Part shown: in pieces, positions 1 to 46,395 of the stretch
How the letters are laid out: each line of letters opens with the position of its first letter
Position numbering within the stretch: the stretch's first letter is position 1
The notes under the pieces: model-generated
The model's database searches: none
Seen by the model: only the letters and a program-made list of their open reading frames with translations
What the model was told of the DNA's origin: nothing
Translations under genes and position numbers: made by a program
Assembly (NCBI GenBank): GCA_964016885.1
Contig: OZ024749.1
Span: 3,968,001 to 4,032,000, forward strand
Reading direction: 5' to 3'
Origin: Eledone cirrhosa
Taxonomy: Eukaryota
DNA length: 64,000 bases

Positions 1-848
1 GGCATCCTCTGGACTGAAATCGGAGACTGAAGGACTGATTATATCCGCACAAGATCAGTGTCTGCCAACAAAAAATTACCAAGCCAACATAATAAAAAAT
101 GGGTGCAGCCCATTATGCCGTGTATGCAAAAAACAACCAGAGACCATTGACCATATAATTTGAATGTGCAGTCCTATAGCTCCAACCGAATACCTAAACA
201 GGCATGACAGAGCTGCACAATACATACATTGGATAATGTGTAAGCATTTTGACCTGCCCCATCAAAAGAATTGGTGGGAGCATCAACCACCTCCCATACT
301 TGAAAAAGATCACATCTCAATCTTGTGGAACTTTAGCATCCAAACAGACCGAAAAATAGATGCAAATAGACCTGATATAATATTGAAGGACTTTCAAAGG
401 AGGGTATGCCTGCTAATTGATATGTCTGTTCCAATAGACAAGAATGTATCTATAAAAACATTTGAAAAATTGAGCAAGTATAAGGACCTGGAGATAGAAA
501 TTGGAAAAATGTGGAAATTGAGAACTAAAACAATACCAGTGGTTGTAGGCGCTCTGGGAATGATACCTAAGGGGTCTAACGACTACTTATCGCAAATCCC
601 AGGAAACCCGCGTATAGGAGAAATACAAAAGATAGTACTAATGGGAACTGCCCATATACTAAGGAAGATCATGTCAATATAAGTACATCACAAGTCTAAA
701 CACTAAGGATGCATGTGTGAATATGTGTGTTCTTTCTTGAACATGGCGGACCTTGTTGTCTCTTGAGGTCACTGGTTGTGACTTGGTGATAACTCGTATA
801 AACATAAAGCAAGATAAATGCAAATAATAATAATAATAATAATAATAA
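1..848 (+). mobile_element. 3' part of an R4/Dong-clade non-LTR retrotransposon, family B (zinc knuckle, RLE endonuclease, 3' UTR, (TAA)n tail); defective
   Basis: CRVC...HII*MC knuckle with a stop at 161-163; RHD; RPDIIL..LIDMSVP..KLSKYKDL (PD-D/ExK-type nuclease) in ORF 164-682; (TAA)n 823-848; near-identical to 12040-12888. Confidence 0.9.
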
Positions 849-850
849 AA

Positions 851-3470
851 ACTGAATGGGCCACTACAAATCATAGACACTAAAAATAAACTGGAAATAA
901 AGTACAAAACTAGGAGGAAAAAGCTAAATAGTATCATAGAGGAACTGAAGCAACGCATTGTAGCAAAAAGCGCAAAGATTAGGCGATAGGAGAGCAGAGT
1001 CAGTCAGTATAGACAGAACCGCATGTTTGACAACAACCAGAAGATACTGTTTGGACAGACTGAAGGGAAAGAAAGAGGCAACGACTTGATCCCTGAGGCG
1101 GAAAAAACTAGGATATTCTGGAGAGGAATACGGGAGCAGGATGTTGAACATAATAACCAGGCAGTGTGGTTTGAGACAGTACAAAAGGAGATAGTGAACA
1201 GGTACACCAACAAACTGATTTGAGTATCACAGTTGAAATTCTTACTGGGAAGGCCAGAAAACTAACCAACTGGAAATCACTAGGCCCAGATGATGTGCAG
1301 GGGTATTGGATAAAAAATACAACATCCCTCCACCCGAAACTGACAACCATGTTCAATGACTGCTTGATGCCAGGTGAGGTACCAGAGTGGTACACAAAAG
1401 GTACCACATTTCTGGTAATGAAAGACCGAAACAAGGGTAATGATGTTACCATCTATAGACCTGTCACATGCCTGTCCATAATGTGGAAACTGTTAACAAG
1501 CATTGTGTCTGAGGAAATCTACCATCACCTACACATAAACAACTTGTTAACGGACGAACAAAAAGGATGCCGAAGGAAGTCCCGTGGTACAAAGGACCAG
1601 TTACTTATTGATAAGATGGTAATGGGGAATTGCAGGAGGAGACACACTGGTCTTGCCGTGAGATGGATAGACTACAACAAGTCATTCGACATGGTACCTC
1701 ATTCTTGGATAACCAAAAGCCTAGAGATCTTCAGGGTGGCAGATAACATCAGACAGTTGGTGAGCAACAGTATGAAGTCCTGGAAAACATAGGGCGGAGA
1801 ATCTTTGGGAGGCGTGAGGATCAAGAGAGGTATCTTCCAGCGAGATAGTTTGTCCCCTATGTTGTTTGTCCTTGCCCTGATCCCCCTGACCATTATACTG
1901 CAAAACGTGAAAGCAGGATACAAGTTGGGAAAGGGAGTGCTTGCCATCAATATGTTCCTCTTCATGGACGATCTTGAGCTCTTCGGGAAGAGTGAGAAGG
2001 AGGTGGATGTGCTTGTTGACACTGTCGGTATCTCCAACAATGATATATGTATGCAATTTGGTATTAGTAAGTGTGGAGTCATTGTGATGAATAGGGGTAA
2101 ATTGAGCAGAAGTAACGGAATCCAGGTAACAACAGGTGAGATGATAAATGAAATTGACTCTGAAGAAGGATACAAGTATTTGGGTATTCTGGAGGCTGAT
2201 GACATCAAGAACATAAAAATGAAGGAATTGATAAGAACTGAATACATTCGGAGAGTAAGGAGCGTATTAAAGTCACATCTGAACAGTAGGAATGCCATAA
2301 GTGCAGTAAATTCCCGATCTGTGTCTATTATTAGGTACAGTGCGGGAATTCTGAGATGGAATGTTGCTGAACAAAAAGAAATGGATAGGAAAACTAGGAA
2401 GCTATTGACTATCTACAACATGTTCCACAAGAGGAGTGATGTCGATATACTCTACTTAAGGAGATCTGAAGGTGGAAGAGGTCTTATCAGCATAGAGGAC
2501 GTGTTCAGATGGAGAAAAACAACCTACACAAATACGTGACTGATAGTAAGGAGCCAATGCTCAGAACTGTACTAAAGGAGTGGACAATAGACCAGGGGAT
2601 GTCCAAGGAGGAAATAACATCAAGGAGAAAGAGCAGCCTTCAGGAAAAATCCCTTCATAGTACCTTCTTTGAGAAAACTGAATTTAGAGATCCATAGACA
2701 TGGAACTGGTTGAAAAGAGGAGACCTTAAAAAGGCTACAGAAGGAATGTTAATGGCTACGCAGGAGCAGGCCCTCAAAACGAAGTGGTCTAAACACCATA
2801 TTTACAAGGAGGAGGCTAGCCAACTGTGCAGGATCTGTGGAGTGAGAGAGGAGACTGTGGCTCACATTGTTACCGAGTGTAAACACCTAGCCCAGACTCA
2901 CTATAAGGGCTGGAGACATGATGTGATGGGCAGGGTGATACACTGGCACCTATGCAAAGTAAACAATTTACCACATTCTGAGAAGTGGTAAGAGCATAAG
3001 CCAGAGTCGGTGATAGAAAACGATCAGGTGAAGGTGCTGTGGGATTTTAGGATACAGACGGACAAGAAACTGGAACACAATAGACCTGACCTGGTAGTTG
3101 TGGTCAAAGAAAAAAGATCGTGCCTGATTGTGGATGTGGGCTGCCCATTCGACACGAGAGTGCAAGAGAAGGAGAGGGAGAAAATTAACCGATACCAGGA
3201 CTTAATGTGGGAGGTAAAAAGGATTTGGAACTGCCATGAAGTCAAAGTGGTCCCGATTGTCATAGGCGCACTAGGGACTATCTCAAAAAGTTTCCAGGGA
3301 TGGTTAAAGAAAATTGGCCCCTTCACGCTTTTTGGAACGCTTCAAAAGGCATGCTTGCTGGGAACAGCAAGAACACTCCGATACGTCCTGAATATCTGAG
3401 GCTGCAGGTAGTGGCTTGATATTCATTTCAACAAACTTTCCAGTTAACTAACATCAATGACTGAGACTCA

Positions 3471-5890: not shown

Positions 5891-8800
5891 AAGGGCCAAG
5901 TGGGATGGCGGATCCACAGATGGCTATGTAAACATACATTCGCCAATCCTCGATAAGAGTGTGTAAATATCGAACATAAACAGTTCGAATAACGGTGAAA
6001 TGGAGACTAGAACGTCATGTGACAGACTCTCACCCAACAGGTGCCCCCTGGCTCAGCAGCAGGAACCTGACTGTCAACCAAATACTGCTGATGTTGGAGG
6101 AAGAAGAAGAAGGAAAGGGGCCAGAACCAACTGGACGAAAGAATTGAATAGAACTGTTATGCAATGCTACCTGAAAAGTAACCCCAAGGAGAGGGGCTAC
6201 AGGAGACGGATGCATAACATCTGGAACGAGATTGGTTTATTTAAATTAGATGAACAAAAATTGGCCGGGCAGGCTCGGGTAATAAGAACTAATGGGTGGA
6301 TAAGCGAGCTGGAACTGGAGGAACTGAGCACAGAGAATGGCTTGGAGATGGCGGGTGTAGTATGCCAGACAATCGAGCCGGCGGGAAATGAAGGTGAGGA
6401 GGTCCTGAGAACGGAGGAACCACCCGAAGCAGACAATGATCTAAATACTGAGATAAATAATACCTGGAACAGAGATACGGCCACTGAGGAGATGAATGCT
6501 GACGGGCTGGGACAAGATTCGGTTGACATCCTAAATTTAGTGGTAGATGAGTTGAACAATGATAGTGGGAGACCTATGAACCTAAGATTTGTAGACAGGA
6601 AAAAGTTAAAAGAAACAACAGCTAAGGTAAACAAAGTCATCCCATACCTTGAGGCGAGGAGTCTTCACCAGTGCAACAATATCCTCAAAGCAACAGCAAA
6701 TACGGTGAGGAAACTACTTGGTATAAAAGCGAGAGGAAACAACAGACAAGAAAGAGCAGAGCCGTGGTGGAAGAAGCGACTGAGTGGGCAAATCGGGGAA
6801 ATGAGAAATGACATAGGAAAGCTTGAGTCACTACTGAATGGGACACTAAAAAACATAGGCACTAAAAATAGACTGGAAATAAAATACAAAACTAGGAGTA
6901 AAAAGCTAAATATTATCATAGAGGAACTGAAGCAACGCATTGTAGCAAAGAGTGCCAAAATCAGGCGATACGAGAACAGAGTCAGTCAGTATAAACAGAA
7001 CCGCATGTTCGACAACAACCAGAAGATGCTGTTTGGACAGCTTGAGGGGAAAGAAAGAGGCAACGACTTGATCCCTGGGGCGGAACAAGCTAAAACATTC
7101 TGGAGAGGAATATGGGAGCAGGATGTTAGACACAATGCCCAGGCAGGGTGGATTGAGACAGTACAGAGGGAGATCGGTGAGCAGGCACAGCAACAGACTG
7201 ATTTGAGTATCACAGTTGAAACTCTTAAGGGGCAAGCCAAAAAACTAACCAACTGGAAATCACCAGGCCCAGATGGTGTGCAGGGGTATTGGATTACACA
7301 TTTAACATCCCTCCACCCGAAGCTGACGGCCATGATCAATGACTGCTTGGTGTCGGGTGAGGTGCCAGAGTGGTTGACAAAAGGTACCACAGTTCTGATA
7401 ATGAAAGACCGAATCAAGGGTAATGATGTTACCAACTATAGACCTATCACATGTCTGCCCGTAATGTGGAAACTGTTGACGAGCATTGTGTCTGAGGAAG
7501 TCTACCATCACCTCCACACAAACAACTTGTTACCGGACGAACAGAAAGGATGCCGAAAGAAGTCACGTGGTACAAAGGACCAGTTGCTTATTGATAAGAT
7601 GGTAATGGGGAATTGCAGGAGGAGACACACTGATCTTGCCATGGGATGGATAGACTACAGAAAGGCATTTGACATGGTGCCTCATTCCTGGATCACCAAA
7701 AGCCTGGAGATCTTCAGGGTGGCAGATAACATCAGACAGTTGCTGGGCAGGAGTATGGGGTCCTGGGAGACAGAGTTGACATCAACTGGAGTATCCTTGG
7801 GAAGCGTGAAGATCAAGAGAGGTATCTTCCAGGGAGATAGCCTGTCTCCTCTGTTGTTTGTCCTTGCCCTGATGCCCTTGACCATTATGCTGCGAAAAGT
7901 GAGAGCAGGATACAAGTTGGGAAGGGGAGAGCTTACCATCAATCACCTCCTCTTCATGGACGATCTTAAGCTCTTCGGGAAAAGTGAGAAGGAGTTGGAT
8001 GTGCTTGTTGACACTGTCCGTATTTTCAGCAGTGATATATGTATGCAGTTTGGTATTGGTAAATGTGGAGTCATTGTGATGAAGAGGGGTAGGTTGAGCA
8101 GAAGTAACGGGATCCAAATACCAACAGGTGACATGATAAAGGAAATTGACTCTGAGGAAGGATACAAGTATTTGGGCGTTCTGGAGGCTGATGGCATAAA
8201 GAACAAAACAATGAAGGAATTGTTAAGAACTGAATACATTCGGAGAGTAAGGAGCGTATTGAAGTCACATCTGAACAGCAGAAATGCCATAAGCGCAGTA
8301 AATTCCCGAGCTGTGTCTATTATTAGGTACAGTGCGGGAATTCTGAGATGGAATGTTGCTGAACAAAAAGAAATGGATAGGAAGACTAGGAAGCTATTGA
8401 CTATCTACAACATGTTCCACAAGAGGAGTGATGTCGATAGACTCTACCTAAGGAGATCTGAGGGTGGAAGAGGTCTTATCAGCATAGAGGACTGTGTTCA
8501 GATGGAGAAAAACAACCTATACAAATACGTGACCTATAGTAAGGAGCCAATGCTCAGAGCTGTACTGAAGGAGGGGACAGTAGGCCAGGGGATATCCAAG
8601 GAGGAAATAACATCAAGGAGGAAGAGCAGCCTTAAGGGAAAATCCCTTCATAGTACCTTCTTTGAGAAAACTGAATTTAGAGATCCACAGACATGGAACT
8701 GGTTGAGAAGAGGAGACCTCAAAAAGGCTACAGAAGGAATGCTAATGGCTGCGCAGGAGCAGGCCCTCAAAACGAAGTGGTTGAAGCACCATATCTACAA

Positions 8801-9490
8801 GGAGGAGGCTAGCCCACTGTGCAGGATCTGTGGAGAGAGAGAGGTGACTGTGGCTCACATTGTGTCCGAGTGCAAACACCTAGCCCAGACCCACTATAAG
8901 GGCTGGAGACACGATGTGATGGGCAGGGTGATCCACTGGCACCTGTGCAAAGTAAACAATCTACCACATTCTGAGAGATGGTATGAGCATAGGCCAGAGG
9001 CGGTGATGGAGAACAATCAGGTGAAGGTGCTGTGGGATTTTAGGATACAGACGGACAAAAAACTGGAACACAATAGACCTGACCTGGTGGTTGTGGACAA
9101 AGAAAAAAGATCGTGCCTGATTGTGGATGTGGCCTGCCCGTTCGACACGAGAGTGCAAGAGAAGGAGAGGGAGAAAATTAACCGATTCCAGGACCTAAAG
9201 TGGGAGGTGAAAAGGATTTGGAACTGCCATGAAGTCAAAGTGATCCCGATTGTCATAGGCGCACTGGGGACTATCTCCAAAGGTTTCCAGGGATGGTTAA
9301 AGAAAATCGGCCCCTTCACGCTTTTTGGAACGCTTCAAAAGGCATGCTTGCTTGGAACGGCAAGAACCCTCCGATACGTCCTGAATATCTGAGGCTGCAG
9401 GTAGTGGCTTGATATTCAATCCAACGGACTTTCCAGTTAACCAACATCAATGGCTGAGATTCACGGAATAACAACAATAATAATACTAAT
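5891..9490 (+). mobile_element. Apparently full-length R4/Dong-clade (RLE-type) non-LTR retrotransposon, family A
   Basis: Short putative 5' UTR (5' boundary approximate), single long ORF, 3' UTR shared with the copy ending at 3470, AAT/AAC tail 9467-9490. Confidence 0.9.
6000..9392 (+). CDS. 1130-aa polyprotein: R4-type N-terminal domain, reverse transcriptase, CCHC zinc knuckle, restriction-like endonuclease
   Basis: Uninterrupted ORF with WTKELN..MQCY, KSPGPDG, YRPITCL, WIDYRKAFDMVPH, GIFQGDSLSPLLF, HLLFMDDLKLF, YKYLG, CRIC-x8-H-x4-C, RHD and RPDLVVVD..IVDVACP..EK. Confidence 0.96.
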   Translation: METRTSCDRLSPNRCPLAQQQEPDCQPNTADVGGRRRRKGARTNWTKELNRTVMQCYLKSNPKERGYRRRMHNIWNEIGLFKLDEQKLAGQARVIRTNGWISELELEELSTENGLEMAGVVCQTIEPAGNEGEEVLRTEEPPEADNDLNTEINNTWNRDTATEEMNADGLGQDSVDILNLVVDELNNDSGRPMNLRFVDRKKLKETTAKVNKVIPYLEARSLHQCNNILKATANTVRKLLGIKARGNNRQERAEPWWKKRLSGQIGEMRNDIGKLESLLNGTLKNIGTKNRLEIKYKTRSKKLNIIIEELKQRIVAKSAKIRRYENRVSQYKQNRMFDNNQKMLFGQLEGKERGNDLIPGAEQAKTFWRGIWEQDVRHNAQAGWIETVQREIGEQAQQQTDLSITVETLKGQAKKLTNWKSPGPDGVQGYWITHLTSLHPKLTAMINDCLVSGEVPEWLTKGTTVLIMKDRIKGNDVTNYRPITCLPVMWKLLTSIVSEEVYHHLHTNNLLPDEQKGCRKKSRGTKDQLLIDKMVMGNCRRRHTDLAMGWIDYRKAFDMVPHSWITKSLEIFRVADNIRQLLGRSMGSWETELTSTGVSLGSVKIKRGIFQGDSLSPLLFVLALMPLTIMLRKVRAGYKLGRGELTINHLLFMDDLKLFGKSEKELDVLVDTVRIFSSDICMQFGIGKCGVIVMKRGRLSRSNGIQIPTGDMIKEIDSEEGYKYLGVLEADGIKNKTMKELLRTEYIRRVRSVLKSHLNSRNAISAVNSRAVSIIRYSAGILRWNVAEQKEMDRKTRKLLTIYNMFHKRSDVDRLYLRRSEGGRGLISIEDCVQMEKNNLYKYVTYSKEPMLRAVLKEGTVGQGISKEEITSRRKSSLKGKSLHSTFFEKTEFRDPQTWNWLRRGDLKKATEGMLMAAQEQALKTKWLKHHIYKEEASPLCRICGEREVTVAHIVSECKHLAQTHYKGWRHDVMGRVIHWHLCKVNNLPHSERWYEHRPEAVMENNQVKVLWDFRIQTDKKLEHNRPDLVVVDKEKRSCLIVDVACPFDTRVQEKEREKINRFQDLKWEVKRIWNCHEVKVIPIVIGALGTISKGFQGWLKKIGPFTLFGTLQKACLLGTARTLRYVLNI

Positions 9491-12400
9491 ATTTCTACAC
9501 TGACATGTACTACCCATCAAATACATCGAATACAGAACAACTATATATCAACTGGAAAAAGAAACATCCCGAAAACAGAGGCTATATTGACAGTAACAAA
9601 CTAGCCAATATACGAAGAAATATTGTAAGAAAAAAGTTACTAACTGATATAGAAATTGATCAGATCAAGCTAGTAGCACAAAGTCAGCGAAGGGAAAATG
9701 AAGCATGTGTCAGTGAAAACGAGGTAAACTGTAACACTTCGAATCCCAGGGTTGGGGCGGAATCACTGGCAACAGAACAAATTAAAGAAAGGAGCGAAAA
9801 AGTGGAGGGAGTGCATGTTCAGGATGAAACTCCAAATGAAAATAATGAGATCGTAAATGATCTAGAAATGAATGAGAATGAACTTGCCAACTTGAAGGAT
9901 GAAATTATGATCGAATGGATGAAAATGAAAGAATCTGACATGGGGCAACGAGATACCCTCCCTAAGATCCAGAACTCCAAACAGAACCAAAAGATAATAC
10001 ACAAGACTAACATAATTCTCAAAAACATTATCATCACAAACAAACTAAACATTACTAACTAAAATCATCTCTATTATGCATCGGCTAAAGTCACCACTCA
10101 CTTATCTGGAGTGAAGATGAAAAAACAAAGGAATTCCCACAAGAAATCTACTTGGCAAGATAACATCAATCGCCAAATAAACCTTCTCCGATCTGACATA
10201 GACATTTTAACAAACTATAAAGTAGGTGAACATGTTAAACAAACTAAACTTAGAAAATTGAAAAAAAAGTACAGTATAAGATCAACATGTGACATAGACA
10301 TGCTGATAGAAACAATCAAGCAAAAAGTGTCGGCCAAAGCTGCTCGTATAAGGCGCTTTGAAAAACGATCTAGATTCTATAAGGACAATAATATGTTCAA
10401 AAACAACCAAAGAAACTTCTACAGAAAAATTGGTAAGTCAACAATAACTGCTAAATCAATACCACCCAAGGAGGAAGTGCAAGAATTCTGGGAAAAGATC
10501 TGGGCCGAAGAAAAAGTTCATAACATACATGCCCCATGGATAGACAGACAAATGAAAGATACAGCTCACCTTGAGGAACAAACATGGGAAAATATAACAG
10601 TTGAACAGTTGCGCTTGGCTCTAAGAAAAACCAGCAAATGAAAATCCCCAGGAAAAGACAAAATACAAAACTTTTGGATAAATGCCTTCACAGAGTCTCA
10701 TGAGCTGTTAGCCCAACTTTACAATGAAATAGTTAAGGAGCCAGAAAAGATACCATCATGGCTAGTTAACGGCATTACATTCCTGCTACCGACGAATGAT
10801 GAGACAAACAATCCCAAAAATTACAGACCGATAACCTGCTTGACCACAATGTATAAAATTTTAACATCAGTCCTAACTGAATACACATATGACCACACAG
10901 TTGGATTGAAAAATGTTTAGAGATTTTCAAAATATCCCCCGTTGTCAGGAGATTTTTGTCATTCAGTATGAAGACATGGAGAACGACACTCCTTTTGAAT
11001 AGTCAAACAAAATCACTGGAAGCTGGAGAAGTTAATATTAATTGTGGAATTTTTCAGGGTGTCTCTTTATCACCGCTTTTATTCTGCATCGCACTTATAC
11101 CATTAAGTAAAATGCTCAATGAAACAAAACATGGATATAGAGTCTATGACAAAACCATTAATCACCTGTTCTACATGGATGACCTGAAACTATTTGCAAA
11201 AAATGATGAACAATTGCAAGGGCTATTATCCAATGTGAAGCAGTTCAGTGATGACATTAAAATGGAGTTTGGACTGGATAAATACGCCAAAGCAACGTTC
11301 ACCAGAGGAAAGCTGCTGAAGAGTTCAGACATTAATCTTGATCGGGGGGAACGTGATAAGAGAGCTTGATCAAGAAAAAACTTACAAATATCTAGGTGTT
11401 TGTGAAGGAGACGGAATCAAGCACTCGACAATGAGGGAAAGGATAAGGAAGGAATGTTACCGCAGAGTCAGAGCAATCTTAAGAACGGAATTGAATTCAA
11501 GGAATAGGATCGATGTCATAAACACGCTTGCCATACCAGTAGTAACCTACAGTTACAATGTCATCAACTGGTCAAGCACAGAGATCCGTAGGCTCGATAC
11601 AAAAATCCGAAAATTCTTAACCATGCACAGAGCAACACCCTAAGGCAGGCATAGATAGAATATATCTCCCTAGGAAAGAAGGAGGACGTGGGTTAATCCA
11701 GTTAGACATTGCGTTGAAAACTGCAACAATTGGATTATCCACATATCTAAGGAAATCACATGATTGGATGATCAAACTCGTTTTGAAACACGAAAGCACC
11801 AAAAGATCATATTCCATTACAAAAGATGCACAAAGATACAGTAATGGACTACACATTTCAGAAGTCCCATTTACTGCTGAAATGGAAAACACAGAAAAAG
11901 CAAAGCAGGTAAAAGTAACTGCAAAGAAAGAACTGCTACAGAAACTGGCTAAGAAATGGCAAGAAAAGCCTCTGTATGGAAAATGCCCAGAGCGAGCTAA
12001 CAATCCTGATGTTGACAAAACTTTAACCCATCAGTTTTTGGCATCCTCTGGACTGAAATCGGAGACTGAAGGACTGATTATAACGGCACAAGATCAGTGT
12101 CTGCCAACAAAAAATTACCAAGCCAACATAATAAAAAATGGGTGCAGCCCATTATGCCGTGTATGCAAAAAACATCCAGAGACCATTGACCATATAATTT
12201 GAATGTGCAGTCCTATAGCTCCAACCGAATACCTAAACAGGCATGACAGGGCTGCACAATACATACATTGGATAATGTGTAAGCATTTTGACCTGCCCCA
12301 TCAAAAGAATTGGTGGGAGCATCAACCACCTCCCATACTTGAAAAAGATCACATCTCAATCTTGTGGAACTTTAGCATCCAAACAGACCGAAAAATAGAT

Positions 12401-12898
12401 GCAAATAGACCTGATATAATATTGAAGGACTTTCAAAGGAGGGTATGCCTGCTAATTGATATGTCTGTTCCAATAGACAAGAATGTATCTATAAAAACAT
12501 TTGAAAAATTGAGCAAGTATAAGGACCTGGAGATAGAAATTGGAAAAATGTGGAAATTGAGAACTAAAACAATACCAGTGGTTGTAGGCGCTCTGGGAAT
12601 GATACCTAAGGGGTCTAACGACTACTTATCGCAAATCCAAGGAAACCCGCGTATAGGAGAAATACAAAAGATAGTACTAATGGGAACTGCCCATATACTA
12701 AGGAAGATTCTGTCAATATAAGTACATCACAAGTCTAAACACTAGGGATGCATGTGTGAATATGTATGTTCTTTCTTGAACATGGCAGACCTTGTTGTCT
12801 CTTGAGGTCACTGGTTGTGACTTGGTGATAACTCGTATGAACATAAAGCAAGATAAATGCAAATAATAATAATAATAATAATAATAATAGTAATAATA
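9491..12898 (+). mobile_element. Near full-length but inactivated R4/Dong-clade element, family B
   Basis: ORF pieces from 9505 to 12721 give an R4-type N-terminus, KSPGKD, YRPITCL, FYMDDLKLF, CCHC and RLE; several stops and frameshifts; internal RT deletion near 10900; (TAA)n tail 12863-12898; begins in the tail of the family A element. Confidence 0.92.
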
Positions 12899-13506: not shown

Positions 13507-13840
13507 AATTGTTTCTACATTTGGCACAAGGCCAGGAATTATGCCAGTGTATTATTGGTACTTTATTTTATCGACCTCTAAAGGATGAAAGGCAAAGTTA
13601 ACCTCGGCGGGATTTGAACTCAGACTGTAAATGGCCGTAACTCTTTGCTGCAAAGCATGGCGTCCGACTCTCTACCAATACTGCCTAGTAATAGTTGTTT
13701 CTACTTTAGTCACCAGGCCAGCAATAACCCAGTACATTACTGGTACTTTATTTTATCGACCCCATAAGGATGAAATGCAAAGTTAACCTCGGTGGGATTT
13801 GAACTCAGACAATAAAGGGACGTAACTCTTTGCTGAAAAG
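13507..13840 (-). mobile_element. Two tandem tRNA-derived SINE copies (Nin/Deu-like central domain)
   Basis: Minus strand has B box gagttcaaatccc, then gccgaggttaactttgcctttcatcc..gtcgataaaataaagtacca and a ...tagaaacaattatt tail. Confidence 0.85.
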
Positions 13841-16965: not shown

Positions 16966-17006
<41 letters not shown>

Positions 17007-17296
17007 CGATAAATTAACTGAGCCATAGACTCTCGCTATTCCCTGTAAATAATCTGCTCAAAGGAGAAGAAATCCTGAGCTCTTTAAAATACAATATGTT
17101 GAAAGTTAACACACTAGAGAGAGATACAGTGCGCTATCAATGAAACAGGGAAAAAACCACCAGTGTATGGAATCCATAACCTATGAAAGGCAGAGTAGAC
17201 ACACGATAATCAAAAATATTAATTAATGTGTAAATACATTTGAGCACATTATTGACAGGGAATAGCGAGATTCTATGGATCTGTTAATTTATCGTG
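17007..17296. mobile_element. MITE-like element with about 55-bp imperfect terminal inverted repeats
   Basis: acgataaattaac..ccataga.tctcgctattccctgt.aataat.tgctcaaa is mirrored at 17239-17296. Confidence 0.7.
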
Positions 17297-17340
17297 ATAT
17301 TTGGCTTCTTATAACAGTCTTTTCTCTCTGTCTGTTTGCT

Positions 17341-18921
17341 TTAGTACACCTCTCTGAGTGATAGGCCTGGGAGTGGAAAAACCTCCACAGGCGTTAGTTT
17401 TGGTTGTGGCGTGGTGGATGGTGTAGGCGCTGGTGCTAGTTCTGAAGCGTTGGGTGGTGGTGGTGTTGGTTTTGCTACTGTTGCTGGGGTTGTTGCTGTT
17501 ATAGTTGCTTCTCTTGTTGTTGCTACAGTTGTTGTTGCCATCTCTGCTACTGGTGGTGTTGATGGTTGTGTCAGTGGGGTGGGTAGGAGAGGTGGCCTCA
17601 ACCTTTTAGCCTGAGGGCAGAAATCCCTTAGGTGGATTCCTTCACCACAAAAACACACCTAGGCCTTCTGCCCTCGACAATTACGGTGAGGTGGCTTCCG
17701 TCAGTGATGTCTATTACCTCTGGGATCTCCTCAATGCTTTTTTGGTCCGCTTGGATCAGGAGCTCCATCCCAGATCTGGACCAGTACTCTTGCTTTTCTT
17801 TTGCTATTGCTATTATCTTTGTGTTGGCTTCGATGCCGGCGAGGACGGCCGCTATTAGCCAGGGAATTTCGATGGCCGGTGGCACGTGGGTCACCCTGAT
17901 CTTTACGAGTCTCTGGCCACAATAGCTTGGGACGAGTATGAAGTCGTCACTTCTTAATGGGGCCATGGAGTGTTCGCTAGCCTCCTCTGGTGTTTCAAAG
18001 AACACGCCCACGGTTCCATACTTCTGCCCACGTCTGATGTGGGTTTTTCTTGCCCACACATGTCCCAAAGCTTTTTGGATTTGGGACTCGGATGCACGTT
18101 CCACTCGGCGCGATTTTACATTTATTGTTCGATACGACACAGTGCATAGGCGCCGATGCTCCATTTTATTAGGTGTGTGTGTAGCGGGGAGGGGGGGGGG
18201 GCTGACTCTGAACCCATCTTTCTTTACCATTTGTTTGGCATTTTCTAATTCCTGCTGAGTTACCGTATATGCTTCGCACTGTTTTGCTACTCTGGCAAAA
18301 CTCAGGGTGGTGTTTTTAATGTCATTGTTGTTGTTGTTGCTATCGTTATTTTTGTTATTATTAATTTTAGTTTCAGTTGTGGTGGTGGTGACGTCAGTGA
18401 AGTTCGGTTTGGGAGAGTCCATTTTGGTTGAAAATATTTCGACACCACGAGTTGATTTATTTTTTTCTTTTGTTTCTGTTGTCGCGGTGGTGGTGGAGGT
18501 GATGGTTGTCGCGGTGGTGGCGGCTTTAACACCTGCAGTCATTGGTAATGGCGGGAAATGAATGTCTGCCTGAGACAAATTTAAAATATTGCTAGTGCTT
18601 AAATTGTGTGTGTTGTCAGACGTAGTATCATTTACAATGGTGGTGTCGGTGCGAGGTGTTAATTTGTGAGAAAGGCTTTCAGCTGATTGGTGCAGTGGTG
18701 AATTAGTCATCTTTTTTTCAAAGAAATTTTTTGATAATCATAAAAGTTTAAATTTTGGGCACAAGGCCCCAATCTTTTTCGGTGTCCTTTTCGGAAAACA
18801 ATGTATGTGAGCTTATATATAGTTAACAATAAAAAATGTCCATAAATGGCAATTTAAAAAAAAACGGAAATAACAAACCTTTGCGGAGCTCACGATAATA
18901 CGATTTACTACGTAGGTCGCC
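17341..18921 (-). mobile_element. 5' UTR and ORF1 of a Tx1/L1-like non-LTR element, 3'-truncated
   Basis: 360-aa ORF 17628-18710 ends IPEVIDITDGSHLTVIVEGRRPRC; a 1-nt frameshift continues as FCGEGIHLRDFCP, giving a CX2CX4HX4C gag knuckle and a Pro/Thr-rich tail; 5' end abuts (TAA)n 18922-18982. Confidence 0.78.
17628..18710 (-). pseudogene. ORF1 (gag-like, CCHC) of a Tx1/L1-like element, frameshifted in the knuckle
   Basis: SFARVAK motif, RRM-like middle (YGTVGVFFETPEEA), knuckle split between ORFs 17628-18710 and 17341-17658. Confidence 0.72.
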
Positions 18922-18982
<61 letters not shown>

Positions 18983-19384
18983 GGTAAGGAAACGCACATG
19001 GTGGATATATATCGTTATGGAATCGCTCCCGTAAGTTTTTTATTTTTACTTATTTAAAACAACTGTGATAGAATAATTCTTATTACAAATGAAGTATCAG
19101 ATTACAGTTTTAACGCTCTGGAAGCCATAACGCATCAACTTACGGCATAGGGCCCCAATATTTAATATTTAATTTTGGATCAGAAATGTTATAGTCGAAA
19201 AAGAGGAAAATGGCAAAATGGCTAAATAGCTAAATGGCTAAGTGGACAGACAGGCAAATAATTTAACCACCACCACCACGACCGCCACCATCACCACTAC
19301 CACGCCAAAAACTCTAGTCAAGTACCTCAACTTCTATTTCTACTTCAACTTCAACACCATCACTACAGTACTACGATCACATCA

Positions 19385-19527
19385 CCACCACCACTGCCTC
19401 ATTATCGCTACCGCCGCTATTCTCTCCCACTAACTCCTGCTAAGTACTACTAGCCGAGCACCACCACCACCACCACTGCCTCATTATCAATACCGCCGCT
19501 ATTCTCTCCCACTACCTCCTGCTAAGA
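19385..19527 (+). repeat. Local duplication of about 60 bp
   Basis: caccaccactgcctcattatc..taccgccgctattctctcccacta.ctcctgctaag occurs twice. Confidence 0.85.
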
Positions 19528-19899
19528 CATACATCGTAGTGTCCCCACAAAAAGAGGAAGGCATCAAAAGATATAAATAGACTGATTTGATGACCCGGTC
19601 AAAAAATCTAATTCAAAAGAGCACAGCAACAACGAAAAACGTAAAGAAAAGAAAAATGAAAAGAAAAACAAACAGACAGACAGAGAAGGAAAAAAAATCT
19701 AAGTCAGACATTCAAACATTACATTAACAATGAAACATGTGCTTATTCTTCTTGGTTTTTTTTTTTACCTATTTGTTTATTTGATTATTTATGTTCATCT
19801 ACAGCGTGATAGTGCCACGCGTGACTATCTCCCCCTCCGCCTTTTGGGATTCTTTCTCACGTCGTGTAGACGCGTTCTTGAAGCTAGTAAAATGAGGTA

Positions 19900-19989
19900 T
19901 CCTCTTGATAAGTCGGCAGACCTCGCAAGGACTCTATATCTTTATGATGTATTGTTTTTGTTTATGCCACGAAACTACGTAGTCGAGGA
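19900..19989 (+). ncRNA. Type I hammerhead ribozyme candidate, U3-A8 core variant
   Basis: Stem I TCCTC/GAGGA; core TTGATAA 19905-19911; stem II GT(C)GGCA/TGCCAC; GAAA 19971-19974; palindromic stem III CTACGTAG; GUC site at 19984. Confidence 0.72.
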
Positions 19990-20492
19990 ATCTAGGAACA
20001 GTTTAGGTATGATACATTTTATTACTAATTATATCTCAATGTTTCTTCTCTCTTCATAATGTATTTTTAACTCTGATACTGGTCCAGTCTAATTCAACCG
20101 GATTGGTCTGTCCCAGTCATTCATTGTGCAACATCGGTAAGGTTGGCACCATTAATTCACGGTTGGGTGTGGATGCATTCATGTATATGTGTGTGTCCGC
20201 ATGTATCTGTGTGTTTCTAAATATATTGTTCATAACTCCCTCTGGTCGAGTAATCTTTGAAGTGTGGTGACTGCTGGAAAGCTGCCATTACTCATACTTC
20301 TCGTCTCCTTCACCATCTCTTCTACGGCTTCGATATAAATACCCCCTCCGCCTCCGTGGTATTTTCGTCGGGGTTATAAGAGGCTTAGCTCTGTTTCTCG
20401 ACCGTTATATCGCGTGACTATCTCCCCCTCCGCCTTTTGGGATTCTTTCTCACGTCGTGTAGACGCGTTCTTGAAGCTAGTAAAACGAGGTA

Positions 20493-20582
20493 TCCTCTTG
20501 ATAAGTCGGTAGACCTCGCAAGGACTCTATATCTTTATGATGTATTGTTTTTGTTTATGCCACGAAACTACGTAGTCGAGGA
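20493..20582 (+). ncRNA. Second copy of the U3-A8 type I hammerhead candidate
   Basis: Same architecture; TTGATAA 20498-20504; GAAA 20564-20567; GUC site at 20577; one stem II C>T leaves a G-U pair. Confidence 0.72.
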
Positions 20583-20815
20583 ATTTAGGAACAGTTTAGG
20601 TATGATACATTTTATTACTAATTATATCTAAATGTTTCTTCTCTCTTCATAATGTATTTTTAACTCAGATACTGGTCCAGTCTAATTCAACCGGATTGGT
20701 CTGTCCCAGTCATTCATTGAGCAACATCGGTAAGGTTGGCACCATTAACTCACGGTTGGGTATGGATGCATTCATGTATATGTGTGTCCGCATGTATCTG
20801 TGTGTTTCTAAATAT

Positions 20816-20858
<43 letters not shown>

Positions 20859-20999
20859 CAAAAATCATGGACTCACTTTGTTTGCTAACATAATATATAT
20901 ATATATATTTTTTTTTTTTTTATCGATCGACTTTCGTCAAATCGGACCGAGGAAACAATGTTTTCGTCGGTCTTTCCAGTTGCTAATACTATCTATCGG

Positions 21000-21590
<591 letters not shown>

Positions 21591-21854
21591 ACATATATAT
21601 AGTTTATCATAAATCTTTCGTTGCACATCTGCAACATCGTCAGTGGTGTTATCGTTTCCTCCTGTTGTATTATATGTCTACGCCAATTTTATTCAGTCTG
21701 TCTATATATTTATTTATTTATTTGCTTGTTTGTTTATTTTATTTTGTCTTCTTTGCGCATGCGTTTGCGTGTGTGTAGTGTTTTGTTTGCTGTGTGATGG
21801 GTGACTAGTGTGTGTGTTATGTGCTTGTTGTTATTGTTATTGTGTTTGTGTATG

Positions 21855-21890
<36 letters not shown>

Positions 21891-21892
21891 GC

Positions 21893-22099
21893 AACGAGTA
21901 GGACCCCGTCGGCTGAGCTCAAGCCGTTTCGACGGGTAATTCTGGACTAAAATCATGCTTTTAGTCCAGAATTAGCCGTCGAAACGGCTTGAGCTTAGCC
22001 GTCGGGGTCCTACTCGTTCCTATTACCCACTCTATTACCCTAAGTATTGAGTACTTTGGTGCGTTATGGTCCATCTGGCTCCTTACAACATTTCCTTCG

Positions 22100-22100
<1 letters not shown>
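21893..22100 (+). mobile_element. Short repeat with a 60-bp-arm fold-back centred on hammerhead stem II
   Basis: Arms 21893-21952 and 21959-22018, loop tcatgc; GAAA-CGGCT..AGCCG-TC-GGGGTC at 21981-22009; 3' body shared with 27655-27780, 29583-29682 and 48929-49100. Confidence 0.8.
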
Positions 22101-22151
<51 letters not shown>

Positions 22152-22179
22152 TATATATATATATATATATATATATACA

Positions 22180-22242
<63 letters not shown>

Positions 22243-22245
<3 letters not shown>

Positions 22246-22418
22246 GTTTCTACTTTAGGCACAAGGCCAGCAATTAACCAGTGCATTACTGGTACTTTAT
22301 TTTATCGACCCCGTAAGGATGAACGGCAAAGTCAATCTCGGCGGGATTTGAACTCAGATCGTAAAGGGACGTAACTATGCTGGGAAGCATGGCGTCCGAC
22401 CCTTTACCGATACTGCCA
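22243..22418 (-). mobile_element. Near-complete tRNA-derived SINE
   Basis: A box tggcagtatcgg, B box gagttcaaatccc, central domain, tail ...tagaaacaatta. Confidence 0.9.
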
Positions 22419-24529
22419 TACAAAAAAAGATGGACTCACTTTGTTTTCCTAACATCAATGAAACCATTTACACATCAAGTCTCACATATCTGAGCAGCAA
22501 TCGATTACAGAATCGGGACCAATTGTGATCAACGGCACTTTGAGGTGCCCGATATGTAACACTGGCCATGTGTGAATAAAAATTGTACTCATACGATGCA
22601 ATCTTCATAGTTTGTCTAGCCTGCCTGTTATGTGTAAATGTGTGTGAGAGAGAAAGAAACAGAGAAAAACAGAGAGAGCGGAAAATGTGTATAGCTTTAC
22701 TATTCTCGGGTTAATATTTTCCTTATTCTTCAACATAATTAAATGGAAGCTTGACTCGTTGTGTTCGTATAACTGAATGTATATCTAAATGAAAGAATGG
22801 TTAGAAGACAATTTGTCGTAGCACACATCTGCTATATTTCTCTGGCCGACATAATCATTTCTTATACAGCAATTGCTTCGAATGTTTTTTATGTTCCTCG
22901 TACGATGTTCAATGCCTTTGAGATGTATTTTCGTGATGCTTCTGTTTGTTGTAACATCCTTGGTTCAATGAATTAACTTATTAACATCAAAACCATTCAT
23001 AAAAGTGTGATCAGCAATATTAACTTGTAGTTAAGGCTATATGGATATGTACGCATATCATTATGGTGATTCGCACAGCAATAGACGACTGCTCTAGTTG
23101 TTTATAGCAACGGAAATGTCTGCTTATTTAATTCATGTGTAAGTGGTTGAACATTCCACAAAACCGTGTGCTATTAACGTAATTCTCAGGGAGATTCAGC
23201 ATCAGAGTTTATGTGACAAGGCTGGTTCTTTGATATAAATTACACTCCATCTGATAGGTCGCCAAAAATATTCCCTCTACCACATTTCACTCACAAGTTA
23301 TTGGTCGAGCCAAGTCTATGTTATATATATGTATGGTCCCGTAATTCCTGATATAGTCGCACGGACGCTGTATTAATATAGGGCGTATCTTGGGCATGTG
23401 AAGGCTGGCCGAGCCCATCCCTCTTCAAACCTCACAGTTTCAGCCTACCTCTCCCAGAGAAAGATATAAAGTGACAGAGGAAATGATAAATAGATATAGA
23501 GAAAGTATCATCTCCAGTACGTGACTGCTACTTTTTTATCGACCTCGAAAGGATTAAAGACAAGGTTGACCTTGGTGGGGTTTGAACTCCTATATCAATA
23601 CGACGCCCCTATGACTCTATCAGGAGTTACGGGACCATACAATCCATACCATTTATTATTGACGATTAAGAAGTTCATTTACCTGTCTGATGTCATTGCT
23701 TCAATCACGTTGCATGGTCTCTCTAATAGGTTTTCTTTTCATACTTCGAGTCTATCCACACCATGTGTTCGAAACTTGTTACATAGAAATCGTATAGAAA
23801 CCTATCGAGTGGAATATGCATTGTCACCCTTCTTCCACTTGGAAATAATGTGAAGGTTACACGTGTCCGTTGACAATACAACTATATCCACTTTAAGTCA
23901 AATGCCGGGCGTTGACATGATCTGACAGCTGAAGGCTCATCGTGGAAATCAACGGGGGATCTATCATCACAAATTCAGCATCATCTGCTAGAGTGTTTAC
24001 TTCTATTTAGTCATCCGAACAATCATCCATACAGCGGTTAAGATGTTGAACAAGTTACAAATATAATTCTCAGTTCAGTTTTACACTAAAACGATTAGCA
24101 TTTCAACTTTGCAAATGTAAAACCATGATTCGAGTTAATTCAGCTTGATAACATGTCTTTCAGTAACTACCAGGATATCATGTTAAGCTAACTGATAATT
24201 TCTACATAAATTGGCTGTAATATTAACGCTCAATAAAGCGATAATTAATACAATCATGTATAGAATTTCTCGTGGTGAAAAACACAAGTGACATGGCGTA
24301 GTGTGGGAAAAAATCTTCAATTCCAATACATGAATGTGAAACATGTAGTTAAAGATGCGTCTAGAAAATTGAAATTGAATTCAGATTACAATGAAAATGA
24401 CATGGAATGTAAACAGGTAGTAAGGCTACGGACAGCTCAAGCGAACGTAAATAATAATCAACATCAACTGTATATATATATATATAAATATGTGTGTCTA
24501 AATAAGTGTGTGTATATATATAGTAATAA

Positions 24530-44689: not shown

Positions 44690-44983
44690 CTGACCTGTGG
44701 GTTTATGTCGAACACCTGCTGTCGAGTGAAGGACGGATTATGCTATCTGCAGAGTCCATCGTGAGGATTTCCCCGCCCTCTTTCTTTAGCCGGGAAGGGC
44801 AGGCAGTTTTTATCTGTCTGGTGGCCATGGTGAAATATATAGTATGGTGGACGCGTCTGAAAAGGCTGAAGACGAGCACTTTCCTCTTCGGTGATGCCCT
44901 GATTAATTTTTTAAAATTTCATTTGAAAAGGAAAATCGGGGTAGAGAGAGAAGTGCTCTCTTCCCAGCATATTGTTGAAAGAT
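44690..44983 (+). mobile_element. Tx1/L1-clade ORF2 C-terminal fragment
   Basis: LSAESIVRISPPSFFSREGQAVFICLVAMVKYIVWWT..FLKFHLKRKIGVEREVL, homologous to ORF 3684-4205. Confidence 0.8.
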
Positions 44984-44998
44984 GCATATTGTTGAAGG

Positions 44999-46115
44999 AT
45001 TGTTTACTTTGCACAGGTGCCAGTGGATCACCCTGCCCATCACATCGTGTCTCCAGCCCTTATAGTGGGTCTGGGCTAGGTGTTTACACTCGGACACAAT
45101 GTGAGCCACAGTCTCCTCTCTCTCTCCACAGATCCTGCACAGTGGGCTGGCCTCCTCCTTGTAGATATGGTGCTTCAACCACTTCGTTTTGAGGGCCTGC
45201 TCCTGCGCAGCCATTAGCATTCCTTCTGTAGCCTTTTTGAGGTCTCCTCTTCTCAACCAGTTCCATGTCTGTGGATCTCTAAATTCAGTTTTCTCAAAGA
45301 AGGTACTATGAAGGGGTTTTCCCTTAAGGCTGCTCTTCCTCCTTGATGTTATTTCCTCCCTGGACATCCCCTGGCCTACTGTCCCCTCCTTCAGTACAGC
45401 TCTGAGCATTGGCTCCTTACTATAGGTCACGTATTTGTATAGGTTGTTTTTCTCCATCTGAACACAGTCCTCTATGCTGATAAGACCTCTTCCACCCTCA
45501 GATCTCCTTAGGTAGAGTCTATCGACATCACTCCTCTTGTGGAACATGTTGTAGATAGTCAATAGCTTCCTAGTCTTCCTATCCATTTCTTTCTGTTCAG
45601 CAACATTCCATCTCAGAATTCCCGCACTGTACCTAATAATAGACACAGCTCGGGAATTTACTGCGCTTATGGCATTTCTGCTGTTCAGATGTGACTTCAA
45701 TACGCTCCTTACTCTCCGAATGTATTCAGTTCTTAACAATTCCTTCATTTTTTTGTTCTTTATGCCATCAGCCTCCAGAACGCCCAAATACTTGTATCCT
45801 TCCTCAGAGTCAATTTCCTTTATCATCTCACCTGTTGGTATCTGGATCCCGTTACTTCTGCTCAACCTACCCCTCTTCATCACAATGACTCCACATTTAC
45901 CAATACCAAACTGCATACATATATCACTGCTGAAAATACGGACAGTGTCAACAAGCACATCCAACTCCTTCTCACTTTTCCCGAAGAGCTTAAGATCGTC
46001 CATGAAGAGGAGGTGATTGATGGTAAGCTCTCCCCTTCCCAACTTGTATCCTGCTCTCACTTTTCGCAGCATAATGGTCAAGGGCATCAGGGCAAGGACA
46101 AACAACAGAGGGGAC
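44999..46115 (-). mobile_element. Young R4/Dong family A copy, truncated at both ends
   Basis: Open frame SPLLFVLALMPL...HLCKVNN nearly identical to 7844-8960; 5' end abuts (TAA)n on the minus strand (46117-46168). Confidence 0.95.
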
Positions 46116-46131
46116 ATTATTATTATTATTA

Positions 46132-46171
<40 letters not shown>

Positions 46172-46172
46172 G

Positions 46173-46395
46173 ACGGTGGAGTGGCAGTATCGGTAGAGGG
46201 TCAGCGCCATGCTTTGCTGCATAGAGTTACGCTCCTTTATGATCTGAGTTCAAATCCCGCCGAGGTTAACTTTGCCTTTCATCCTTACGGGGTCGATAAC
46301 ATAAAGTACCAGTCACACACTGGGGTCGATTTTATCGATTTACCCCTTCACCCAAAATTGCTGGCCTTGTGCCTATATAAGAAACCATTATTATT
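46173..46395 (+). mobile_element. Full-length tRNA-derived SINE
   Basis: tggcagtatcggtag A box, gagttcaaatccc B box, central domain, ..gtgcctatataagaaaccattattatt tail. Confidence 0.9.

Follow-up and report, generated by a model that had tools for sequence, protein, structure and literature searches.

The window, a stretch of 64,000 nt of the Eledone cirrhosa genome (3.0 Gb; the window lies on G000:C9), contains on its forward strand a short non-coding element made of tandem units. One full unit of 593 bp (19818..20410) is followed by a second, partial unit (20411..20820), with a period of 593 and a unit-to-unit identity of 97.6% over 412 columns. The array amounts to 1.7 units with two hammerheads and includes one complete site-to-site monomer, 19985-20577. 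An earlier account made from the letters alone (the sequence-only reading) had described a 593-bp tandem repeat with a hammerhead in each unit, and this is present, the second unit being partial. The 5' end of the element is a truncation junction against an older LINE: the 5' region of an abundant LINE family (19500..19817, forward strand), itself outside the element, is cut off at this point, and the nine other copies of this LINE that were examined all run on into LINE sequence and none into the unit. The insertion is direct, and the second unit stops at site B, one of two family-wide 3' ends described below, against a (TA)n microsatellite (20821..20855, no strand assigned) that is the inferred target.

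The unit has a GC content of 42%, and the longest stop-free frame in a doubled unit is 87 aa. No ORF with RT and GIY-YIG domains was found within the repeat, and no similarity to Penelope proteins was found in the unit (best E value 1.1). The proposal of a non-coding, retrozyme-like element is upheld, as no ORF exceeds 87 codons, the units are in tandem and each carries a hammerhead. The motif CCCCTCCGCC, presumably GC-box-like, occurs twice per unit (19832-19841 and 20343-20352) and is largely conserved between subfamilies; it is possibly part of an internal promoter.

Both hammerheads are of type I and on the forward strand, the first at 19900..19989 and the second at 20493..20582, with predicted cleavage after C17 at 19984 and 20577, respectively. 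In the first, stem I is formed by TCCTC (19900-19904) and GAGGA (19985-19989), the core reads TTGATAA (19905-19911, spanning U3 to A9, with U3 at 19905 and A8 at 19910), stem II pairs GT(C)GGCA (19912-19918) with TGCCAC (19965-19970), and GAAA (19971-19974) leads into the stem III palindrome ACTACGTAGT (19974-19983). Stem I is open, and the core, the 3-8 Watson-Crick pair and GAAA are those of a type I hammerhead. The stems, UUGAUAA core, GAAA, palindrome and GUC sites had all been read correctly before, except that stem II of the second copy is GTCGGTA, in which T at 20510 gives a U-G wobble. Stem II has a distal extension of 13 bp (19926..19960, forward strand) that varies in sequence and mostly keeps its pairing: 94.9% of cells are paired, with one-sided change at six pairs and two-sided change at one.

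Under a purpose-built descriptor, 3000 dinucleotide-shuffled versions of the unit, each searched on both strands, never gave the same anatomy, and with three helices the whole structure has 96.5% of cells paired (15 copies) versus 35-53% in slid controls. No antisense hammerhead core was found in the repeat. A search with standard models misses this hammerhead: Rfam gave 13 matches at E<=1 in 17000-24000, none of them to a hammerhead family and each scoring under the gathering threshold of an unrelated model. In the monomer stem III is weak, whereas a dimer would form a 10-bp duplex (-14.3 kcal/mol). The hammerhead is probably an active ribozyme, with predicted self-cleavage after the GUC.

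A search of the genome with the unit gave 1,719 candidates, and the 40 that were scored include full-length matches at 94-100% identity. Exact matches to the stem III motif number 8,071 (control 0) and those to the core motif 6,574 (control 27), with U3-A8 in 99 of the 100 matches listed; the cleavage-site motif of the two youngest subfamilies has 6,626. The family comprises more than 6,600 hammerhead copies in the genome, thousands of them dispersed, in at least four subfamilies, whose identity to the window unit is ~98, 93, 82 and 77%. The existence of another family combining this stem III with a different stem II was considered and rejected: of 52 matches, 30 were examined, and 29 of these are copies of the present family. 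We assume that the repeats resemble octopus sequence.

U3-A8 occurs in 363 of 364 copies taken from examined loci, with the other core positions canonical, and the 15 copies genome-wide that lack U3 include 14 that keep A8 and one that reads C3-G8. The sequence-only reading had proposed a compensatory U3-A8 core, with decay of a canonical core as the alternative; these counts exclude decay. Core and stem III columns do not differ between subfamilies (0 of 21), compared with 73 of 537 columns outside the ribozyme stems in subfamily SF3 and 80 of 354 in SF4 (binomial P ~0.05 at the SF3 rate and ~0.005 at the SF4 rate, the subfamilies being non-independent). In loci chosen by whole-unit BLAST, independently of the motifs, SF3 has 2 core variants in 545 versus 460 in 13,057 elsewhere; the contrast is weak in the young SF1 (4/689 versus 207/19,368, also at motif-independent loci). 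Stem I shows a compensatory change from U-A to C-G in 38 copies, with nine U-G intermediates. These comparisons between copies indicate that U3-A8 is the family state, kept across subfamilies up to ~23% diverged, and that the core is under purifying selection.

The special character claimed for this core stands in part: U3-A8 is real and conserved, but it has already been published, also for Penelope hammerheads. Natural U3-A8 covariation has been reported in hammerheads (PMC3088659), and Cervera and de la Pena (PMC4209133) found ~1,300 U3-A8 hammerhead matches in Schistosoma mansoni that they associate with Penelope elements named Cercyon. The core itself is therefore known and is no surprise to a specialist. 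Lunse et al. are said to have described Penelope-associated hammerhead variants, which may include similar ones.

The sequence-only reading also drew a hairpin, GAGG-TAT-CCTC, that would compete with stem I. This can be drawn, but it is probably wrong, as the covariation of GAGG is with loop II, and none is seen with stem I. In the alignment fold, UGAGGU (19893..19898, forward strand; CGAGGU at 20486-20491 in unit 2) pairs over 6 bp with ACCUCG (19920..19925, forward strand) in the internal loop of stem II, which is otherwise unpaired. This predicted pseudoknot is paired in 2,155 of 2,184 cells, its end pair being U-G in 289 copies, U-A in 64 and C-G in nine. Its helix takes no nucleotide of the ribozyme stems, which makes it compatible with the active fold. 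The helix energy is -6.9 versus -3.6 kcal/mol. A pseudoknot-free fold gives the hairpin a probability of 0.79 and stem I 0.10, and the latter rises to 0.65 once the pseudoknot strands are held out of the ensemble. Two-sided change in the pseudoknot is limited to one pair in nine related copies, and pairs with two-sided change show no excess over shuffles (56/500), the copies being related. A role for the competing hairpin as a conserved switch is disfavoured: in 37 SF3 copies with a compensated stem I, GAGG is unchanged and the hairpin carries an A-C mismatch. The hairpin could form transiently in SF1. GAGG is likely to form the 6-bp pseudoknot with loop II, judging from pairing in the alignment. 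Pseudoknots that hold stems I and II parallel are found in ~40% of representative hammerheads and speed cleavage (PMC3088659).

The insertion architecture, absent from the sequence-only reading, is the most informative on how the element moves. It was examined at 278 loci, a non-random set picked by BLAST or motif, and counted in 173 insertions with both ends visible, insertions running past the edge of a locus being excluded. The 3' ends fall at two sites. Site A (20056..20066, forward strand; unit position ~247, equal to 20064), an inferred RT start, accounts for 139 of 273 3' ends, and site B (20219..20229, forward strand; unit position ~410, most at 409-413) for 114, so that 253 of 273 lie at A or B and 20 elsewhere. 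The stretch between them is a Penelope-type tail of ~165 nt (20065..20229, forward strand), repeated at 20658-20820. A (TA)n tract adjoins 234 of the 273 3' ends versus 29 of 73 5' ends; the latter are scattered, as by 5' truncation, and partial tandems are present. The insertions thus bear the hallmarks of Penelope, with (TA)n as the target, truncated 5' ends, arms in inverse orientation and fixed 3' ends of two kinds. Penelope insertions have been described as partial tandems with a truncated copy in inverse orientation and a one-ended tail (PMC8557442), and in vitro the tail of the Anolis element is the stretch between two internal RT start sites, with no strand difference seen in the part of that report available (PMC11167929). 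Published tails measure 30-40 bp (PMC8557442, PMC11167929).

The 173 insertions include 100 that are inverted, of which 83 combine one A with one B end, one combines A with A (a 28-nt arm), none combines B with B, and 16 have one end unclassified. A+B is therefore found in 83 of the 84 that can be classified (P = 9e-24 against one half). Twin priming as in L1, with a block to the B arm at A, was considered and rejected, as three of 83 B arms end there. An 11-bp helix between A and B is predicted with a probability above 0.5 in 94 of 106 tail domains; in the window copy it reaches 0.99 (0 of 100 shuffles as high), and 0.64-0.87 when the whole monomer is folded. Folding of two autonomous families did not predict such a helix, and TA-like sites pair easily; for these reasons a modelled A-B helix that would join both start sites is put forward only as a hypothesis. 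The pairing may be a by-product of both sites being TA-like.

An inverted 20-kb array of 34 full units lies at ~193.98-194.00 Mb on G000:C1 (loci L289-L291), with one B and one A end. Its variants recur every 4-6 units, a higher-order periodicity showing that arrays also expand at the DNA level; long arrays can arise in this way and provide linear multimers with no need of circles.

A search for GIY-YIG sequences in the genome gave 10,595 candidates, of which 50 loci were examined. Among these are at least six families with RT and GIY-YIG domains (Pfam) and a CX2-5CxxC linker, the signature of Neptune/Nematis elements (PMC8557442). One intact Neptune-type protein is encoded by a 1,096-aa frame in locus L113 (975-4262, forward strand). 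In the six sampled families, the hammerhead is U3-A8 in three, C3-G8 in one, U3-A8 with GCAA for GAAA in a fifth and ambiguous in the sixth, whose two copies each deviate in the core. U3-A8 is therefore the usual state of the sampled Neptune-type elements, and C3-G8 descriptors and Rfam models miss most of their hammerheads. The GCAA variant is found nearly throughout loci L089, L091, L098, L104, L107, L117, L123 and L127, L098 having TCAA in place of GAAA; cleavage would be expected to be impaired with GCAA for GAAA. Coding families with C3-G8 and U3-A8 hammerheads (L110, L114, L115, L118 and L126 versus L111, L112, L116, L120 and L122) have the same layout, and their presence in one genome provides a natural covariation set. 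The backbone of a tree of Neptune proteins is unresolved and gives no direction for the change between C3-G8 and U3-A8. The coding Neptune-type families have (TA)n ends and the same end layout with shorter tails, for example with ends 76 and ~142 nt past the cleavage site.

In the 50 of 10,595 GIY-YIG loci, one nested insertion and TG repeats were all that matched the unit; no coding element sharing its sequence was found there or beside the 227 family loci. The assignment to Neptune consequently rests on target, layout and core. The element is likely to be a non-autonomous retrozyme mobilized by Neptune-type Penelope proteins, and Penelope-driven mobility as such is very probable. The unit could alternatively be just the terminal repeat (pLTR) of an autonomous Penelope element with coding copies outside the sample. 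Its layout is that of the coding Neptune pLTRs here (hammerhead, first end, tail, second end), and the GIY-YIG candidates examined are a small part of the total; however, in none of the 173 insertions does a coding insert separate the units, which are arranged head to tail, and no 5' flank is common to the family loci, except at one duplicated locus. In addition, the Penelope protein matches, at 11 of 227 family loci, all lie outside the repeat, and the best similarity in the unit is the insignificant one given above (E 1.1). This explanation is accordingly very improbable.

Non-autonomous derivation from Penelope is the thesis of a recent preprint on animal retrozymes, on the basis of co-occurrence and phylogeny, in which the mechanism of movement is still to be worked out (bioRxiv 10.64898/2026.07.22.740005). 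For the family described here, the copies offer evidence on the template. The cleavage site is intact in 6,626 copies versus 64 without C17, i.e. ~99% are continuous across it, so that a linear cleaved monomer can be rejected as the main template. The cleavage site is a short way upstream of both A and B, and yet copies are continuous across it, so the template was circular or uncut. In 53 of 57 cases, units resemble those of their own insertion, opposite arms included, more than they resemble units at other loci, consistent with either one circle or the transcript of a homogeneous array. Exactly at the cleavage site, 18 of the 30 cases examined among 64 are 5' junctions, an estimated ~38 in all; the figures three bases downstream are 11 of 30 among 73, or ~27, and three bases upstream two of 28. 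The site is not clearly enriched over the neighbouring position.

This lack of a clear pile-up is one point for the view that the hammerhead fold came from a Neptune pLTR, persists for a structural or protein-binding role and cleaves poorly or never. Penelope hammerheads are often weak in vitro (PMC4209133), and the Neptune-type family with fixed GCAA has still spread. Against this, the catalytic positions, the 3-8 pair, the GUC triplet and the pseudoknot are all kept across subfamilies 14-23% apart, and we regard a hammerhead of this kind as improbable.

The reading preferred here, with an active ribozyme and a circular template, would run as follows. Arrays with two or more hammerheads would be transcribed, and pseudoknot pairing of the 5' leader with loop II would dock stems I and II. 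Cleavage after C17, either in the monomer or in a dimer joined by the 10-bp palindromic helix, perhaps with the help of protein, would free a 593-nt RNA. This RNA would circularize and, probably as a re-ligated circle, would template insertion into (TA)n. The RT-endonuclease of a Penelope element, probably acting as a dimer, would nick both strands of the (TA)n tract. Of these target strands, one would be primed at site A and its counterpart at B, the two sites lying on opposite strands of one helix. Each cDNA would extend over a variable length, and the joined truncated ends would yield direct or inverted partial arrays, a few of which may later expand at the DNA level. Two points favour the circle: the core is under selection in an element whose templates would otherwise simply be lost through cleavage, and circular RNA accumulates from related metazoan retrozymes (PMC7229834). 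Anolis Penelope counts against it: in vitro, insertion has no need of ribozyme cleavage and uncut RNA is the main substrate, with no reads ending at the site in the available sections (PMC11167929). Among the predicted retrozyme dimers of Xenopus, one of nine cleaved in vitro (bioRxiv 10.64898/2026.07.22.740005). The whole chain, with a circular template, seems to us just about probable.

A less likely, though still credible, course is that the same non-autonomous Penelope element, also with an active ribozyme, uses uncut linear multimeric RNA as its template; cleavage would then trim read-through or act late, and circles would play no part in transposition. Insertion of Anolis Penelope from unprocessed RNA in vitro (PMC11167929) agrees with this, long arrays could be regenerated by DNA-level expansion, and similarity within arrays and continuity across the site fit equally well. 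Cleavage would, however, destroy such a template, yet the core is strongly selected in an element without protein, and related metazoan retrozymes accumulate circles (PMC7229834).

The circular reading can be taken further, tentatively and with rather more doubt than confidence, to a self-cleaving, circle-forming 593-nt RNA parasite of Neptune in which one helix would offer both RT starts to a dimeric Penelope enzyme, so that the nicked strands would always be primed at different sites. If true, such helix-presented start sites would account for the Penelope tail and for its presence on one side of inverted insertions, would leave tail length free while the sites are joined in space, and would make the element a minimal protein-free substrate for circle-templated integration. 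The pseudoknot and the A-B helix are specific, testable structures.

The element works like a metazoan non-LTR retrozyme, having tandem hammerhead units, no coding capacity and a GC content below 50%. Metazoan retrozymes (Cervera and de la Pena 2020, PMC7229834; bioRxiv 10.64898/2026.07.22.740005) likewise consist of tandem non-coding units below 50% GC with a type I hammerhead each, present in thousands of copies and with a proposed dependence on Penelope. The unit of ~590 nt (593) exceeds the 150-450 bp of PMC7229834 and lies within the 51-972 bp of bioRxiv 10.64898/2026.07.22.740005. The family differs from them in its U3-A8 core, long stem II and predicted pseudoknot, and in that the Penelope junction signatures (tail, inversions and TA target) are counted directly in genomic DNA. 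The Penelope pLTR hammerheads, including Cercyon of Schistosoma mansoni, share U3-A8, a palindromic helix III, a short stem I, a larger stem II and the Penelope association (PMC4209133). They are heterogeneous and mostly single motifs, whereas the present family is homogeneous, tandem and without an ORF; it has a GUC site, and its 10-nt palindrome allows a monomeric stem III of 3 bp.

Insertions of Penelope elements, including Poseidon of Anolis (PMC11167929; PMC8557442), are alike in having two internal starts that define the tail, an AT-rich target, partial tandems, inverted 5'-truncated copies and a one-ended tail. In contrast, the tail is ~165 nt here and 30-40 there, a predicted helix joins the sites, and the element has no protein of its own; A and B are paired almost without exception in each inverted insertion here, whereas the accessible text on Poseidon reports no strand difference in vitro (PMC11167929). 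The pseudoknotted hammerheads of Perreault et al. (2011; PMC3088659) share the Watson-Crick pseudoknot and natural U3-A8 covariation, and the two, the pseudoknot as a prediction, are combined here in a high-copy animal retroelement. The features of most interest are the predicted pseudoknot, the long tail and the end-pairing rule, the core variant being already known. In a literature search that covered few subscription papers, neither this family nor any cephalopod retrozyme nor a counted A+B rule came up, and preprint supplements may list similar families. Junction-level evidence of Penelope-type integration for a protein-free retrozyme, with a near-absolute end rule for inverted insertions, bears on two open fields, namely how animal retrozymes move and what purpose Penelope hammerheads serve.

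Other mobile elements are present in the window. An unbroken 1,141-aa non-LTR retrotransposon frame (5967-9392, forward strand) lies in a cluster of broken copies; read by eye, it has RT, C-terminal zinc finger and restriction-like endonuclease motifs. Relatives are found at 164-3399, 9490-12721 and 44903-46249 (reverse strand), and a family related to this frame is the apparent source of the LINE 5' region at 19500-19817. A 369-aa frame at 17628-18737 (reverse strand) has no Pfam match and by eye is like a LINE ORF1 protein. The near-perfect inverted repeat between (TA)n tracts at 21878-22019 is likely to be a fold-back insertion of another TA-targeting element. Lastly, a short interspersed repeat (family D20), which we take to resemble octopus SINEs, has at least 12 copies, including those at 13556, 13741, 22290, 41230, 51109 and 59565.
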